Source of the DNA: an uncultured Candidatus Saccharibacteria bacterium | Lineage (GTDB): Bacteria; Patescibacteriota; UBA1384; DTJR01 | Direction: 5' to 3' | Length of the DNA: 64,000 nt | Assembly: GCA_964487045.1 (NCBI GenBank) | Contig: CAZAOT010000001.1 | Coordinates: 4,875-68,874, forward strand | In this document: positions 4,669 through 41,208 of the stretch, in pieces | How positions within the stretch are numbered: the stretch's first letter is position 1 | How the letters are laid out: every line of letters starts with the position of its first letter | The notes under the pieces: model-generated | The model's database searches: none | What the model was told of the DNA's origin: nothing | What the model saw: the letters and a program-made list of their open reading frames with translations, nothing else | Position numbers and translations under genes: made by a program

Positions 4669-5757
<1,089 letters not shown>

Positions 5758-9122: not shown

Positions 9123-10174
9123 TGCAATTAAAAATCGGCAAAAAGATAATTTCGCAAAGCGCTCCAGCTTTTATTATTGCCGAGCTTTCTGCTAATCATA
9201 ATCAAGATTTTAAAGTCGCCGCAAAGACGATCGAAGCGATTAAGCAGTCGGGAGCGGATGCGGTTAAAATTCAAACTTATACAGCTGACACCCTGACGCT
9301 AGACTCTGACTTGCCCCATTTCAAAATTAATCAGGGTACGATCTGGGATAAAAAGACCTTTTATGAGCTATATAAAGAAGCTCATACTCCTTGGGAGTGG
9401 CAGCCACGCCTCAAGAAAATAGCCGAGGATCTTGGTTTGATTTTCTTTTCTTCGCCTTTTGACCTGACAGCAGTGGATTTCCTCGAGAAAATGAAAGTGC
9501 CAGCATACAAAATTGCTTCCTTTGAAATCACTGATCATGCCCTGATCGAGTATGTCGCTAAGCAAGGAAAACCGGTTATCATCTCTACTGGCATTGCGAA
9601 GAAGAAGGACATTGAAGATGCAATTAGAGTTTGCAAGAAAGCGGGAAACAAGCAGATAGCCTTACTAAAATGTACCTCGGCCTACCCAACTGCTCCTGAA
9701 GAAATGAATTTAAAGACTCTTGCCGATATGAGCAAGCGCTTCAAGGTGATTGTTGGCCTGTCGGATCATTCTGAGGGTTCGGTCGCTCCAATTACCTCGA
9801 TTGCCCTCGGAGCAAAAATAATTGAAAAGCATTTTATTTTAGATAAGAAGATCGGTGGCCCAGACGCTGAATTTTCCATGGAGCCTGTTGAATTTAAAAA
9901 AATGGTTGAGGATATTAGAGTGGCCGAAAAGACTTTGGGGAAGGTTAGCTATGAGCTGACTGAAAAAACGAAAAAAAGCCGTGGTTTTGCCAGGTCGTTA
10001 TTTGTTGTCAAAGAAATCAAGAAAGGCGAAATTTTTACTTCTAATAACATTCGTTCAATAAGGCCAAACCTTGGTGTTCATCCTAAATACCTTAAAGCAA
10101 TTATTGGTAAAAAGTCGGCTAAAGATCTTAAGCCAGGAGAGCCTATGAATTTAAAATATATTTCTAAATCATGA
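9122..10174 (+). CDS. pseI: pseudaminic acid synthase (NeuB/PseI family)
   Basis: 350 aa. N-terminal FIIAELSANHNQD...GADAVKIQTY TIM-barrel signature and a C-terminal SAF-like domain. Confidence 0.88.
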   Translation: MQLKIGKKIISQSAPAFIIAELSANHNQDFKVAAKTIEAIKQSGADAVKIQTYTADTLTLDSDLPHFKINQGTIWDKKTFYELYKEAHTPWEWQPRLKKIAEDLGLIFFSSPFDLTAVDFLEKMKVPAYKIASFEITDHALIEYVAKQGKPVIISTGIAKKKDIEDAIRVCKKAGNKQIALLKCTSAYPTAPEEMNLKTLADMSKRFKVIVGLSDHSEGSVAPITSIALGAKIIEKHFILDKKIGGPDAEFSMEPVEFKKMVEDIRVAEKTLGKVSYELTEKTKKSRGFARSLFVVKEIKKGEIFTSNNIRSIRPNLGVHPKYLKAIIGKKSAKDLKPGEPMNLKYISKS

Positions 10175-10851
10175 GCTGCTTAGCCATAATACCTGCTCGT
10201 GGTGGCTCAAAAAGAATTCCAAAGAAAAATATTATTTCTTTTCTTGGTTCGCCCATGATTAAATATTCGATTGATGCTGCCTTAAAAAGCAAGTGTTTTG
10301 AAGAAATCATGGTCTCAACTGACGACAAGGAAATTGCTAGCGTAGCCTCTCGCCTTGGAGCGAAGGTGCCATTTATGAGAAGTAATGATAATTCGAAAGA
10401 TTGCTCTATTCTTGCTGACGCGGTTCTTGAGGTTATTGAGCAATACGAACAATTGGGGAGAAAATTTGAATATATTTGCGTAATACTGCCAACCGCTCCC
10501 TTGATAAAAGTTAAAACTCTTAAGGAAGGTTTTGCTCTTATCAAAAAGGGGGCTCAGGCGGTTATCCCCGTTGTTGCCTTTAGCTACCCTATTCAAAGGG
10601 CATTTAAGGTTAAAAATACCAAGCTAAAGATGTTTGACGAAGCATTTATGCATGTTAATTCACAGGCTCTCGAGCCCGCTTATCATGACGCCGGTCAATT
10701 CTACTATCTGAAAACTTCTAGTTTTAAAAAACAAAAAAAGATTTTCTTGGACAAATCGCAAGCGATAATTCTTAGGGAGTCTGAGGTTCAGGATATTGAT
10801 GTCTTAGAGGACTTGAAAATCGCCGAGTTAAAATATAAGCTTCAGTCATAA
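10171..10851 (+). CDS. pseF: pseudaminic acid cytidylyltransferase (CMP-nonulosonate synthetase family)
   Basis: 226 aa. AIIPARGGSKRIPKKN signature. ATGA overlap with pseI. Confidence 0.88.
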   Translation: MSCLAIIPARGGSKRIPKKNIISFLGSPMIKYSIDAALKSKCFEEIMVSTDDKEIASVASRLGAKVPFMRSNDNSKDCSILADAVLEVIEQYEQLGRKFEYICVILPTAPLIKVKTLKEGFALIKKGAQAVIPVVAFSYPIQRAFKVKNTKLKMFDEAFMHVNSQALEPAYHDAGQFYYLKTSSFKKQKKIFLDKSQAIILRESEVQDIDVLEDLKIAELKYKLQS

Positions 10852-37220: not shown

Positions 37221-37264
37221 AAACAAAAGAGGCGGGAGCGAAGGGGTTGCCCTTCGCTCCCGCC
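37221..37264 (-). terminator. intrinsic terminator of the GC-rich small-protein operon
   Basis: GGCGGGAGCGAAGGG pairs with CCCTTCGCTCCCGCC (37231-37264), followed on the minus strand by TCTTTTGTTT. Confidence 0.8.
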
Positions 37265-37270
37265 GGGATG

Positions 37271-37423
37271 CTACGCGCTTTTCGCGCGCTTGATGTGGTA
37301 GGCGAGTGAGATGATGGCGCACACCCCACAGAAGAATGGGATTGCGCGTATGTGCTCACCTCCATAGGCCTCAATAAGGCCGCCAGTGACCAGCGATAGA
37401 ATCGAATAGCCCAGAAGACTCAT
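37271..37423 (-). CDS. 50-aa two-TM peptide (gene D of GC-rich operon)
   Basis: MSLLGYSILSLVTGGLIEAYGGEHIRAIPFFCGVCAIISLAYHIKRAKSA. RBS TAGGAG overlaps the stop of gene C. Not in the ORF track because of its size. Confidence 0.55.
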   Translation of the reverse strand: MSLLGYSILSLVTGGLIEAYGGEHIRAIPFFCGVCAIISLAYHIKRAKSA

Positions 37424-37433
37424 CGTGATACTC

Positions 37434-37709
37434 CTATTCTAATCCCAGAGTTGCTCCGCCGGCAAAGCGGCGTTCTGTTTCAGCGAGGAGAGCCTTTCCC
37501 TCGATCGTCACCATGTTGTCCGACATGATTCCTTGCTTGTCTGGACAAATGATGAGTTCTGCTTCGCCTGTCAGTCTGACTTCAGCGGAACTCGTTTCCG
37601 CTATCTCGACAAAAAGAGGTGGCTCGTGTGAGCCAGACTTATTCTTCAGACAGACCCAGATACGCGAGCCGACAGGTTGGCGCCTGAGGTCGAAGAAGTT
37701 TAGCTTCAC
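37434..37709 (-). CDS. 91-aa soluble protein (gene C of GC-rich operon)
   Basis: GTG at 37709, preceded by GAGGAGG. GTGA start/stop overlap with gene B. VKLNFFDLRRQPVGSRIWVCLKNK... No family recognised. Confidence 0.6.
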   Translation of the reverse strand: MKLNFFDLRRQPVGSRIWVCLKNKSGSHEPPLFVEIAETSSAEVRLTGEAELIICPDKQGIMSDNMVTIEGKALLAETERRFAGGATLGLE

Positions 37710-37927
37710 GCTACCTCCTCGCTTGACGCTTCGGCTGTTTCTTCTCTTCTTCCTCTGAACGAAGAGATGATGGCAAGGCCGCCACAGAAGATGCAATTGC
37801 CGCTTGCGAGGAGAGTCACTGAGACTGGCACGTCCTGCTTGATGTAGAGAATACCGAGCAGGACAAGTCCCATGGCGATTAGTCCGAGACCGCTAAGGAT
37901 CAGGCTTATATCCGGTTTGTATTTCAT
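37706..37927 (-). CDS. 73-aa two-TM protein (gene B of GC-rich operon)
   Basis: MKYKPDISLILSGLGLIAMGLVLLGILYIK...NCIFCGGLAIISSF. RBS AAGGGAAAG. Starts 15 nt after the gene A stop. Confidence 0.65.
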   Translation of the reverse strand: MKYKPDISLILSGLGLIAMGLVLLGILYIKQDVPVSVTLLASGNCIFCGGLAIISSFRGRREETAEASSEEVA

Positions 37928-37942
37928 TGGTGCTTTCCCTTT

Positions 37943-38077
37943 CTAGCGCGTGAATGCGAACTGGGGAAGGTGCTGCCAGGCGAGAGCAATGGCAGCACAG
38001 AAGATGATCACTAGTCCTACCAAGGCGAGGTAGGCCGGCAGATTGTGCCTTTCTGATTCTAGGAATCTTAGTCGCAT
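37943..38077 (-). CDS. 44-aa single-TM peptide (gene A of GC-rich operon)
   Basis: MRLRFLESERHNLPAYLALVGLVIIFCAAIALAWQHLPQFAFTR. RBS AGGGAGAGGG lies 3 nt upstream of the ATG at 38077. Confidence 0.5.
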   Translation of the reverse strand: MRLRFLESERHNLPAYLALVGLVIIFCAAIALAWQHLPQFAFTR

Positions 38078-38244: not shown

Positions 38245-38321
38245 GCACCCGTAGCTCAGCTGGATAGAGCGTTGGCTTGCGGAGCCAAAGGTCGTAGGTT
38301 CGAATCCTATCGGGTGTACCA
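38245..38321 (+). tRNA. tRNA-Arg (anticodon GCG)
   Basis: 77 nt. Acceptor GCACCCG/CGGGTGT, D arm with A20, anticodon arm TTGGC-TTGCGGA-GCCAA, T arm GTAGG-TTCGAAT-CCTAT, encoded CCA. Its last 6 nt are also the first 6 nt of IR-A. Confidence 0.9.
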
Positions 38322-39776
38322 GTACGGAAATGTCAAATTTTGGGAGTTTGCGCCGCCTGCGGCGGCGACTAAATTGTAGGGAATTTTTGCTTCAAAATGC
38401 CACTTTCGATTCTGTAAGAAATGGTTCGAGCCGATATTTTTGAGAAATGTTAGAATTTCCGAATAATCTTCGGAATTTTTTAGTTTATCTGCTTTGGCAA
38501 GCGATAAAATGAACTCTTTGGCCGGTTCGAGCCAAGACAATCCTTTTTGTTCAAAATCTGTAATTTTTTCGTTAATCTCCAGCTTTTCGCTAAGTAGCTT
38601 TTGTTTTCGCAAAGTATATTCTTCGGTTGTAATGACTTCGCTCAGATATACATCGAGTAATTTTTCAAGCTGTTTCGTAATTTCTTCGAGCTTTACTTTG
38701 AGATTTTGAACAGAAGTTTTAGCCAACGTTCTTGCTTGAGTTTCTTGTTTCTCTAATTCAAACAAAACTTTTTTGGTATCTTGGCTCGACAAAGAAACTT
38801 TTTGTAAATACCCATTTATTTGCTCAACGAGTTTTTCTTCTCGCAGATAATGCTTTTCTTGGCAACCACTTTTCTTTTTTGTGCATCGGTAATAGTTGTG
38901 GCCTTTTTGTATTTCGGCAGTAATCGCACAGCCGCAACTTTTACATTTCATAAGCCCAAGAAAAGCAAAATGATGTTTTTCCTTTTTGCGAGGCTTGCCA
39001 CGATCTTTCAATACTTCTTGGCATTTATCAAAAAGTTTCTTTGGGATTATCGGTTTGTGTTTTCCTTCGTATATTTCGCCGTTATATTTCATTAGCCCAA
39101 TGTAGAAAATATTTTGTAGAATTGAATTGATATTGCTGATAGAAATCCTCTTGTTGAGATTCCCGAATAACATGTCATCTTCCGCCCAATTTGCGAGAGA
39201 ATTAAAGGTATATTTGCCGGTTGAATAGAGCTCAAAAAGCTTTCTGACTTTTCTAACCTTTATTTCGTCGACATCAATATTTCTTGTTCTCGGATTATTT
39301 ATATAGCCAACCGGCGCCCAGCCGGGCCAAACTCCATTTCGTATTTTTTGCCTTAACCCTCGTTTTACATTCTCTCGCAAATTGTCTACAAAATATTTTG
39401 ATTGACCAAAAGCAATGTTCAACATGAAAATCCCTTGAGGTGTTGGTTCAAACCAGAACGAAGGAAAACACAAGGATTTGATTTTCTGCCGGTCTATCAT
39501 GTGGATTATCTTTCCACCGTCTACACTATTTCTTGCTAACCTGTCAGGGTGCCAACTCAAAATCCCTTCCGCCTTTCCTTTTTCGATCAATTCTAACATT
39601 TCAGCGAACTTCGTTCGACCAGGTTCTTTGGCAGTTTTGGCTTCGCACAGCGAAGCGACAATTTCAAGTTTTTCTTTGGCGGCAAATTCCCGAAGCTCAA
39701 CTAGTTGAGCTTCAATCGAAAGAACTTGTCTGTCATCATCTTCAGTACTTTTGCGAGCGTAAATTATGTAGCGCAT
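38307..39776 (-). CDS. large serine recombinase (integrase)
   Basis: 489 aa from the ATG at 39776 (RBS AAAGGAGG).
- MRYIIYARKSTEDDDRQVLSIEAQ resolvase catalytic domain (Ser10).
- Recombinase domain, zinc ribbon CKSCGC...YYRC...C, and a coiled-coil.
- AT-rich.
- The last roughly 36 codons lie in IR-A, and the stop lies inside the tRNA. Confidence 0.9.
   Translation of the reverse strand: MRYIIYARKSTEDDDRQVLSIEAQLVELREFAAKEKLEIVASLCEAKTAKEPGRTKFAEMLELIEKGKAEGILSWHPDRLARNSVDGGKIIHMIDRQKIKSLCFPSFWFEPTPQGIFMLNIAFGQSKYFVDNLRENVKRGLRQKIRNGVWPGWAPVGYINNPRTRNIDVDEIKVRKVRKLFELYSTGKYTFNSLANWAEDDMLFGNLNKRISISNINSILQNIFYIGLMKYNGEIYEGKHKPIIPKKLFDKCQEVLKDRGKPRKKEKHHFAFLGLMKCKSCGCAITAEIQKGHNYYRCTKKKSGCQEKHYLREEKLVEQINGYLQKVSLSSQDTKKVLFELEKQETQARTLAKTSVQNLKVKLEEITKQLEKLLDVYLSEVITTEEYTLRKQKLLSEKLEINEKITDFEQKGLSWLEPAKEFILSLAKADKLKNSEDYSEILTFLKNIGSNHFLQNRKWHFEAKIPYNLVAAAGGANSQNLTFPYWYTR
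38316..38415 (+). repeat. IR-A, left copy (100 bp)
   Basis: Manual base-by-base comparison with the reverse complement of 39817-39916 gives 98/100 identical (mismatches at 38398 and 38407). Contains the palindrome CGCCGCCTGCGGCGGCG. Confidence 0.9.
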
Positions 39777-39816
39777 TTTCCTCCTTTTAATTTCATAAAA
39801 ATTTTCTTTTACAATC

Positions 39817-39916
39817 ACAGAATCAAAAGTGGCAATTTGAAGCAAAAATTCCCTACAATTTAGTCGCCGCCGCAGGCGGCGCAAACTCCCAAAATTTGAC
39901 ATTTCCGTACTGGTAC
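39817..39916 (-). repeat. IR-A, right copy (100 bp, inverted)
   Basis: Reverse complement of 38316-38415 with 2 mismatches. Lies upstream of the recombinase start. Its outer 7 nt (CTGGTAC) are shared with IR-B. Confidence 0.9.
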
Positions 39917-40004
39917 TCTATCCTGAAAATTGTTCGAACGTATTTTGGCCGCGAAGCGGCCGAGAAAACACCCCCGAAAATTCCCGACTGAAATTCTGAA
40001 CTTT
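39910..40004 (+). repeat. IR-B, left copy (95 bp)
   Basis: Manual comparison with the reverse complement of 40970-41064 gives 95/95 identical. Contains the hairpin GGCCGCGAAGCGGCC. Confidence 0.92.
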
Positions 40005-40133
40005 CAAAACTGCCAAAGAATCTGTTTCAAAAATATCGGCTCGAATCCATTAGTTTGTAAAAGAAAATTTTTATTAATTCAATCAGCACTGATTGATTTT
40101 TTATTCTTCTTGGTATATGCTTTTATTCAACAA

Positions 40134-40175: not shown

Positions 40176-40225
40176 AGCAGGAAAATCTCTGTACAGGCCA
40201 CAAGGCCGTGCAAGGAGTGAGAACA

Positions 40226-40846
40226 TTGTCTAAGGTCAACAGTATCCAGCTCACGTGTCTCAAGCCGAATGACTGTTCCACCCGACTTGCTCTTCCCGAA
40301 GTCACCTACGACTTTCGGGTGTGGGCTATCATCAACGACCTTGAGAAGGCCGTTGAGAAGGCGGGCGGTGCAACGCTCGCAGTCTTCGCGGGTGTTCCGT
40401 GGGAGTACGGGAGCCGCTCGGTCAACTTTCTCAACTATGTGGCCGAGATGGTGGTGAGAACAAACCGCGGCAAAGGGGAATTCATCGGAAGAAGCTATCT
40501 TGCGAGTGGCGGGATGTCACGGCTCGCAAGCTTGATGAAGGACGTTCGGCCAGACGGACAGATCAGAGCTGTGGTCGACCAAATCACGCGAACAATCTGG
40601 TCCGACCAGCCGATCCCGCGCGGTTTGCCCGACAATCTCTGGTACGAGCAGACGGACTACGAGTCGTTCTGCATCAAGTCGGGCAAAGGTGACATCATCA
40701 GGTGGGTTCCCGAGAATCAAGTTCAGGAGGAGCGGACGATGGGATTTCTCCGCTTGGAGTTTGAGGAGCCCTCTGTCAAGCACTTCTGTCAGCTAATTCA
40801 ACAGCTACATCGCTTTCCGGGTGTGGCCGAGTTCGCCAACGGCTAG
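40226..40846 (+). CDS. orphan GC-rich cargo protein of the recombinase element
   Basis: About 206 aa from the TTG at 40226 (AAGGAG 8 nt upstream); GTG at 40208 or 40217 are alternative starts. G/C-ending codon bias. No family recognised. Followed by a terminator. Confidence 0.65.
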   Translation: MSKVNSIQLTCLKPNDCSTRLALPEVTYDFRVWAIINDLEKAVEKAGGATLAVFAGVPWEYGSRSVNFLNYVAEMVVRTNRGKGEFIGRSYLASGGMSRLASLMKDVRPDGQIRAVVDQITRTIWSDQPIPRGLPDNLWYEQTDYESFCIKSGKGDIIRWVPENQVQEERTMGFLRLEFEEPSVKHFCQLIQQLHRFPGVAEFANG

Positions 40847-40869: not shown

Positions 40870-40898
40870 AGGCAGACCAGCAGTGGCCTGCCTTTTTT
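40870..40898 (+). terminator. intrinsic terminator after cargo gene
   Basis: AGGCAGACC pairs with GGCCTGCCT (one mismatch), followed by TTTTTCTT. Confidence 0.6.
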
Positions 40899-40969
40899 CT
40901 TGCCGCCAAAGGAGAAATCTGCTAAGATTTCTCTAGTGAGCGAAGCTCACTAAAAAACTTGAAATTGTC

Positions 40970-41064
40970 AAAGTTCAGAATTTCAGTCGGGAATTTTCGG
41001 GGGTGTTTTCTCGGCCGCTTCGCGGCCAAAATACGTTCGAACAATTTTCAGGATAGAGTACCAG
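40970..41064 (-). repeat. IR-B, right copy (95 bp, inverted)
   Basis: Perfect reverse complement of 39910-40004. Ends with GTACCAG at 41058-41064. Confidence 0.92.
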
Positions 41065-41186
41065 AATAAAATTTGCCCCTCGCGGGCTAATTTTATTATT
41101 TGGGAACCATAGGATTCGAAGGCCGCAGCGAGCGTAGGCGAGCGAGGCGGGGTCGATGAATTTGCCAGCAGGCAAATATCAGTGAC

Positions 41187-41208
41187 CGAATCCTATCGGG
41201 TGTACCAG
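41187..41208 (+). repeat. direct repeat of tRNA-Arg 3' end (att-type site)
   Basis: 22/22 identical to 38301-38322. Followed by hairpin ATATGAC...GTCATAT plus T8 (41210-41248). Confidence 0.85.

Follow-up and report, generated by a model that had tools for sequence, protein, structure and literature searches.

An inverted attP-type site between the integrase and cargo modules of a tRNA-targeting element in an uncultured Candidatus Saccharibacteria bacterium

Results

A two-module element at a tRNA-Arg gene

We analysed a stretch of 64,000 nucleotides (nt), referred to below as the window, from an uncultured Candidatus Saccharibacteria bacterium (contig CAZAOT010000001.1 of assembly GCA_964487045.1), in which an integrase gene reads into the 3' end of a transfer RNA (tRNA) gene for arginine. 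The element to which this gene belongs has the order attL (tRNA/A), integrase, complete inverted attP (B'/A), one cargo gene and attR (B'/x), where attL, attP and attR are attachment (att) sites, A and B are the repeated arms that compose them, and x is the sequence that follows the last arm (Table 1). An earlier reading of the letters alone, made without database searches (the sequence-only reading), had claimed a 100-bp inverted repeat around the recombinase gene, and recomputation returned the same repeat. The repeat search gave two inverted arms of 100 nt, 98% complementary and 1401 nt apart, and base-by-base comparison (98/100) placed both mismatches at the end distal to the core and the tRNA. 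Exactly two occurrences of a 66-nt part of the arm, one per strand, were found in the window, against 0 expected (100 shuffles). The cargo gene is bracketed in its turn by a second inverted pair, absent from the sequence-only reading, which is also 100 nt long (98%) and overlaps the first pair by the 7-nt core GTACCAG.

The long minus-strand open reading frame (ORF; 38307-39902) ends at a stop codon (38307-38309) within tRNA-Arg (38245-38321), as the sequence-only reading had stated. The integrase start is the ATG at 39776 (MRYIIYARKS), with AGGAGG before it, giving a protein of 489 amino acids (aa). This protein is a large serine recombinase, with Pfam matches to PF00239 (Resolvase, 6.7e-22), PF07508 (Recombinase, 6.6e-14) and PF13408 (Zn_ribbon_recom, 1.2e-06) that all exceed the curated cut-offs. 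Its AlphaFold model is poor as a whole (mean predicted local distance difference test score, pLDDT, 59.7) and contains helices at 334-378 and 384-411 (pLDDT 71-91), candidates for the long coiled coil that interrupts the zinc-ribbon domain in enzymes of this class; a sequence search of the PDB matched the catalytic domain alone. Homologues number more than 7800 at E <= 0.001, those with a named source being mostly Patescibacteria, or candidate phyla radiation (CPR) bacteria, and the best 120 of them are 69-87% identical to the window integrase. The exact sequence was not on record in an exact-protein look-up. Identity to any annotated phage integrase is at most about 26%, and the protein falls far under the NCBIfam cut-offs for CcrB and XisF.

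Several other classes of enzyme and element were considered and rejected. The NCBIfam model for IS607-type serine transposons, whose small recombinase has an N-terminal DNA-binding domain, scores 28.5 bits, the cut-off being 110. The small serine invertases Hin, Gin, Cin and Pin have about 190 aa, end in a helix-turn-helix and act on inverted sites of 26 bp together with an enhancer, compared with 489 aa, integrase domains and arms of about 100 nt here; the term 'Pin-like invertase' in some source records is an automatic label only. A shufflon, in which Rci acts on sfx repeats of 19 bp, was set aside because the enzyme is a serine, not a tyrosine, recombinase. The same applies to a tRNA island with a tyrosine integrase, for which 15 nt or more of the tRNA 3' end would be repeated directly at both ends; the tRNA-fragment repeat is found only in the window and at two other loci (L079 and L082), beyond attR.

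The layout recurs at many tRNA genes

Related loci were sampled from genomes (4 relevant loci) and metagenomes (80 loci), and repeats were counted in the 52 loci where the 3' end is complete and the upstream sequence spans at least 260 nt. In 48 of these 52 loci, the integrase 3' end has an inverted copy upstream of the gene (median length 100 nt, median identity 99%, 19 identical); among the four exceptions, L085 carries an upstream arm too, in diverged form. At 39 loci, the second repeat pair and the shared core were found together with one cargo ORF, encoded on the opposite strand. The targets are the 3' ends of 12 kinds of tRNA gene (Leu, Ala, Arg, Lys, Gln, Met, Val, Tyr, Ile, Glu, Phe and Ser). 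At L077, L075, L078 and L073, two integrase copies lie within a few kilobases (kb) of each other in tRNA gene clusters, which indicates that several elements can hold neighbouring tRNAs in one genome.

Attachment sites and target recognition

Sites S1, S2 and S3 of the window (Table 1) are composed as attL, attP and attR, respectively, and the upstream copy of the repeat is therefore one half of a complete inverted attP. Alignment of the three sites at 34 loci gave hybrid arms as expected and a shared core of 2-7 nt in most loci and of up to 19 nt at the extreme. The core covers the acceptor-stem end together with the discriminator and CCA and reads GCACCA, CCACCA or, in the window, GTACCA. 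At its smallest, the shared stretch is 2-4 nt and falls at the first positions of the core; at every one of these loci, the insertion restores the tRNA.

The left arm of attP carries a copy of the T-loop, GTTCGAAC, and the GTTCGA motif within it starts 23 nt before the core, compared with 18 nt in the tRNA, in 24 of 24 loci. For the LI integrase, the motif bound by the zinc-ribbon domain has been placed 5 bp nearer the centre in attB (half-site positions 11-19) than in attP (16-24) (PMC3783163). The 5-bp shift of the T-loop agrees with the rule stated there, and it lends strong support to the view that the enzyme is a bona fide serine integrase, that S2 is an attP of functional type and that recognition of the universal T-loop accounts for the broad choice of tRNAs. 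Two further ideas were discarded: a palindromic crossover dinucleotide, which would make the sites blind to orientation, since CCACCA-type and AC cores have none, and a successive insertion of the modules as circles, since core polarity alternates.

The C terminus is encoded by the junction

The sequence-only reading had proposed that the C terminus of the recombinase depends on the integration junction, and comparison of the homologues bears this out. They share a conserved sequence up to ...FLKNIGSNHILQNR..KIPYNLVAE....LTFPYW(C/Y), past which the translated sequence is that of various tRNA 3' ends or of attP arms. Among the best 120 homologues, tails such as GRESNPH or RQDSNLQ, the reverse complement of the T-loop read as protein, are present in at least 62; 29 stop immediately past the core, and in about 15 the tail runs into the left arm of attP (..VRT.. 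or ..LEPI..). Within single clusters formed at 90% identity, integrases that are 99.6-100% identical over about 487 aa carry four to seven different tRNA-type tails as well as an attP-type tail. Such near-identical integrases with varied tails indicate that the residues past the crossover are encoded by the junction and are dispensable, and that the element has recently been at many tRNAs. The same comparison showed that the repeat holds conserved coding sequence, so that the protein does not end ahead of it. An ancestral gene ending at ...NHIL before the repeat was also considered and was rejected, as a stop after the HIL remnant is present in only 10 of 35 cargo units.

The repeat copies evolve in concert

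Between elements, arm A is 69% and arm B 66% identical, whereas the copies within one element are about 99% identical. The boundary of the repeat falls at the same codons (QNR) throughout the family, in integrases that are only 58-87% identical. The shared boundary codon, together with identities of about 69% between and 99% within elements, indicates that the duplication is old and that its copies evolve in concert. Of the two explanations that the sequence-only reading had offered for the near-identity of the copies, recent formation is thus contradicted, and ongoing exchange is upheld. Mismatch between copies (58 loci) is 1-2% within 40 nt of the core, rises to 9-15% at 80-100 nt and is random past 100 nt; unique sequence just past the boundary has a mismatch of about 70-78%. 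We infer that this gradient of identity, centred on the core, may reflect repair of core breaks from the other copy.

The cargo module and a split promoter-like motif

The cargo gene of the window (40208-40846) has no family match in Pfam or NCBIfam and no homologue but itself among 5.8 billion clusters. The cargo unit recurs with 100% identity in unitigs from other sequencing runs (SRR11845624 and SRR29243437), and the Logan unitigs of the gene end inside the B arms. Across the 39 elements, the cargo proteins are almost all mutually unrelated and comprise, at one gene per element, enzymes, membrane proteins, secreted proteins and ORFans. As read from the sequences and not from family searches, they include short-chain dehydrogenase, NUDIX hydrolase, kinase-like, dihydroorotate-dehydrogenase-like and methyltransferase-like proteins, and many have an N-terminal membrane helix.

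The scaffold around the cargo follows the same order at 39 of 39 loci: arm B, recombinase (rec) aa ~46-52, rec aa ~445-454, the leader GTAAAAGAAAATTTTT, the cargo, rec aa ~31-43 and arm B'. The integrase-derived patches repeat short runs of integrase codons in sense orientation. Upstream of the cargo, 33 of 43 loci have a copy of the leader, whose background frequency is one per 9.3 kb. From its sequence, the cargo module looks like a degenerate twin of the integrase module. The stretch of the integrase gene that matches the patches flanks a small hairpin (39640-39656).

On the cargo strand, a -35-like hexamer in arm A' (TTGACA) and a -10-like hexamer in arm B (TATCCT) face each other across the attP core at a distance of 17 nt. 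At attP, 32 of 34 loci have this arrangement, with TTGACA or TTGCAA, exactly 17 nt, and TATTCT or TATACT; attL has it in 1 of 34, and a few attR sites show a weak version. A sigma-70-like promoter between the core and the integrase start was not found in 41 of 42 loci. The TTGCCA hexamer that the sequence-only reading had taken for a -35 element of the recombinase gene has neither a conserved -10 partner nor positional conservation, and it corresponds to coding sequence (TTGGCG) in other elements; this assignment is not supported.

Orientation variants and derivatives

In about 43 of about 48 informative full-length copies, the cargo module is divergent and lies on the 5' side of the integrase, as in the window. 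At L097 the integrase module alone is flipped, giving the order tRNA fragment / A - leader - integrase -> A' / B - patches - cargo ->. The assembly of this contig used k = 141, and its 508-aa integrase is shared with L098. The cargo module is convergent with the integrase at L096 and L098, the latter of which looks chimeric within arm A. At L027, tRNA-Leu adjoins the upstream A copy, and at L088 and L087 there are attP-type sites on both sides of the integrase, the upstream B repeat being undetected in L087. A second class of cargo module, which has inverted arms of 119-267 nt (Table 1) and larger cargo, always lies 3' of the integrase. A related decayed island, L086, holds an OLD-family nuclease and a DNA methyltransferase.

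Simple elements without an internal attP contain 62-aa 'mini-rec' ORFs, in which rec aa 1-52 are fused to aa 446-454, and have the layout tRNA / A - leader - mini-rec - leader - cargo - rec patch - B' / x. This layout corresponds to a full element whose integrase module was flipped and then deleted between two 20-nt copies of rec 46-52, and a deletion from the flipped state appears to be the simplest explanation of these elements. Loci L091-L095 (for example L093, 3774-5490) are non-autonomous relatives with this layout, lie at tRNA-Leu without inverted repeats, and carry cargo such as a radical SAM protein.

The sequence-only reading had placed the recombinase gene on a potentially invertible segment. 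The flipped module of L097, the rearranged L096 and L098 and the mini-rec deletions speak for this claim, and the support they give is indirect. They indirectly support the view that modules have switched orientation in nature, whatever the rate and the enzyme.

Other features of the locus

The features of the window are listed in Table 1. An Rfam scan returned the tRNA as its sole match. In the window, the spacer past attR includes a hairpin of terminator type (41065-41097), a piece of T-loop sequence in inverted orientation, ataggattcgaa (~41111-41122), and a GC-rich stretch similar to the hairpins of the arms. A tRNA fragment comparable to 41187-41208 was present at only 2 of 26 other loci examined (L079 and L082), and in the window and at these two loci it lies 78-144 nt past attR. 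The spacer and the 22-nt tRNA copy are probably the scar of an earlier event or element and lie outside the standard element.

GC-rich hairpins are present on both attP arms (in the window at ~38350-38368, ~39864-39882, ~39947-39961 and ~41013-41027). Nearly all elements have arm hairpins about 30-50 nt from the core, with differing stem sequences and weak single-sequence folds (median z -1.2 to -1.4), and in arm A the hairpin falls on the one part of the protein tail that varies. Both attP arms have a short motif, GGGAATTTT / AAAATTCCC, on the same strand (~38378-38390 and ~39975-39987), about 65-75 nt from the core, and other loci show the like; it could be an accessory binding site. Just upstream of tRNA-Arg, the region 37300-38050 has a G+C content of 53% and only short overlapping ORFs on both strands, and a perfect 15-nt hairpin lies at 37231-37264.

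Table 1. Features of the element and its surroundings in the window, with the arms of second-class cargo modules at three other loci
Feature	Position	Strand	Remarks
tRNA-Arg(GCG)	38245-38321	+	integration target, intact after insertion; ARAGORN; Rfam tRNA 69.8 bits
attL core GTACCAG	38316-38322	+	last acceptor-stem bases, discriminator and CCA; crossover at first positions; attL/attP/attR comparison in window and 33 other loci
Site S1	38316		tRNA / A; attL make-up
Arm A, copy 1 (P' arm at attL)	38316-38415	+	minus strand codes for last ~33 integrase codons
Large serine recombinase (integrase), 489 aa	38307-39776	-	stop inside tRNA; Pfam domains
Leader motif 'u', GTAAAAGAAAATTTTT	39797-39812	-	conserved, upstream of integrase start; between arm A and ATG in all loci
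Internal complete attP, inverted (B' / core / A)	39817-40009	-	arm A copy 2, 39817-39916; core, 39910-39916; arm B, 39910-40009
Site S2	39910, inverted		B' / A; attP make-up
Promoter-like motif across attP core	39896-39924	+	TTGACA in A', 17 nt, TATCCT in B; faces cargo gene
Integrase-derived patches, inner edge of arm B	40005-40082	+	rec aa ~46-52, rec aa ~445-451, copy of leader motif u
Cargo gene, 212-aa ORFan	40208-40846	+	56% G+C against ~38% around it; followed by hairpin 40870-40893
Integrase-derived patches (rec aa ~31-40), inner edge of arm B'	40900-40969	+	
Arm B' and core = attR (B' / GTACCAG / x)	40965-41064	+	pairs with arm B, 39910-40009
Site S3	41058		B' / x; attR make-up
137-nt spacer, then 22-nt direct copy of tRNA 3' end (41187-41208)	41065-41208	+	
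Site S4	41202		22-nt tRNA fragment / original flank
Second-class cargo-module arms, L088	7458-7724 / 10054-10320		
Second-class cargo-module arms, L087	7717-7835 / 9780-9898		
Second-class cargo-module arms, L027	2090-2212 / 5131-5253		

Discussion

With moderate confidence, we interpret the repeat as the P' arm of a large serine integrase att site, within a two-module element with an internal inverted attP, which would isomerise and carry a split promoter. The integrase would have inserted an element of about 2.75 kb at the 3' end of tRNA-Arg, with each module bracketed by inverted repeats of about 100 nt whose meeting point is a shared crossover core. A circle of about 2.7 kb with two inverted attP sites would result from excision by attL x attR, and either site could then serve for integration. 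Each module is predicted to invert with respect to the other and to the tRNA, by means of the integrase or of homologous recombination. In the strongly predominant state, which selection may maintain, the integrase reads into the tRNA and the cargo points the same way as the tRNA. Breaks at the core would be repaired from the other copy, which would leave repeat identity highest beside the core. The intact internal attP would supply the cargo gene with a promoter split by the crossover (-35 in A, -10 in B), which bound integrase would occlude. The function assigned here to the internal attP is one that we infer from sequence comparison.

Several observations weigh against this interpretation. 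No circular contig and no terminal overlaps were found in any locus, and the orientation of the modules was read from assembled contigs; a single contig in a rare orientation carries limited weight, because short-read assemblers can mis-resolve repeats of 100 nt. According to PMC3783163, attP with attB is the only pair of sites that characterised serine integrases recombine, and an integrase-driven inversion between attL and attP would accordingly be unusual. If the attP sites were equivalent, both orientations should be equally frequent, and the predominance of one state requires selection or bias. Simple derivatives without an internal attP exist, which indicates that an element can stay in the chromosome without this site. 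Conservation of the -35/-10 motif may reflect only its role as a binding site of the integrase. Finally, no candidate for the directionality factor that enzymes of this class need for excision was found among the elements, which share no conserved second gene and differ in their cargo.

An alternative that we judge unlikely is a dedicated inversion switch, which the repeat would exist to serve and in which the 1.4-kb integrase segment flips between the A arms; the gene would be off when antisense to transcription running on from the tRNA promoter and on when co-transcribed with the tRNA. Such a switch would fit an integrase without a recognisable promoter of its own between core and ATG, and L097, where the tRNA fragment is followed by A, the leader and an integrase co-directional with the cargo, would represent the second state. 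Mini-rec elements share the left junction of L097, and assemblies often break at the arms. A switch of the integrase alone, however, explains neither the similar bracketing of the cargo module nor the placement of the upstream arm within a complete attP. Roughly 90% of the informative copies are in one state, and known serine integrases do not recombine attL with attP (PMC3783163).

Less probable again is a frozen accident, in which an ancient inverted duplication has been held identical by gene conversion alone and the internal attP is functionless today. The integrase-fragment scaffold that bears the cargo at 39 of 39 loci, like a degenerate twin, and the persistence of derivatives that lack the internal attP would both be in keeping with it. 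Against it, the full length of about 100 nt on both sides, the 17-nt spacing and the boundary codon are kept in 48 of 52 elements from very divergent lineages, while the unique sequence beside the repeats is unconstrained; the elements have also been recently mobile, so that decayed copies would be expected to have been lost from the mobile pool. A false inverted repeat made by misassembly or chimerism is hardly credible: the window and nearly all of its relatives do come from short-read metagenome assemblies, and L098 looks chimeric in arm A, but the same architecture recurs in more than 50 independent assemblies from various projects and assemblers, at 12 kinds of tRNA and with its own sequence in each, and the cargo unit of the window is 100% identical in unitigs of other sequencing runs.

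Returning to the two-module element with an internal inverted attP, its integrase has the same domains (Resolvase, Recombinase, zinc ribbon and, probably, a long helical insert) as phiC31, Bxb1, A118/LI integrase, TnpX and CcrAB. The large serine integrases of phages and mobile elements are also alike in their short core, in the 5-bp shift of outer motifs between attP and attB, and in having the integrase gene beside attP. Unlike these systems, the element described here targets the 3' ends of many tRNAs, has an ORF that crosses the crossover point, and retains a second, inverted attP once integrated, all within about 2.7 kb and with one cargo gene.

The Hin/H segment, Gin, Cin, Min and the shufflons resemble the element in having segments between inverted sites and a middle site shared by adjacent segments, and hin lies inside its own segment as the integrase gene does here. 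In those systems, sites of 19-26 bp are recombined by small serine invertases of ~190 aa, which have an enhancer, or by Rci, a tyrosine recombinase, in contrast to a 489-aa integrase and att sites with arms of about 100 nt, and inversion here, unlike there, would leave all junction sequences unchanged. The yeast 2-micron plasmid and plastid-type inverted-repeat genomes offer a second parallel, as the predicted circle would likewise have two inverted recombination sites of about 193 bp, two unique segments and copies that evolve in concert. The 2-micron FLP is a tyrosine recombinase, however, no replication function was found in the element, and its circle is predicted only.

Circle junctions of the insertion sequences (IS) IS911, IS30 and IS2 are alike in that one end holds a -35 and the other a -10 element, which form a promoter only when joined. 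The IS circle promoter drives the transposase and is lost on insertion, whereas here an intact promoter-like copy stays in the integrated element and faces the cargo. In phiC31 recombinase-mediated cassette exchange and MiMIC, a cassette lies between two inverted attP-type sites and can be flipped or exchanged but not excised, by laboratory design. No natural counterpart of the attL / inverted attP / attR layout was found in the searchable literature, outside which many subscription papers lie. The layout thus resembles invertible segments, the 2-micron plasmid, IS junction promoters and engineered inverted-attP cassettes, and is a member of none of these.

Conclusions

The elements may belong to a very large, undescribed and self-rearranging class with 'attP in the middle', which would target the universal T-loop and CCA end of any tRNA gene, shuttle arbitrary genes singly between CPR bacteria, isomerise in the manner of the 2-micron plasmid and gate a cargo promoter through the integrase. 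We put this forward as a real possibility, short of an expectation. The layout poses questions on site choice, on directionality without a helper and on how an attachment site might regulate a gene. Genome engineering could make use of an integrase that reads the conserved T-loop and CCA end and that occurs, identical in sequence, at many different tRNAs. CPR/Patescibacteria have tiny genomes and poorly known routes of gene exchange, and the family would be a major single-gene shuttle among them.

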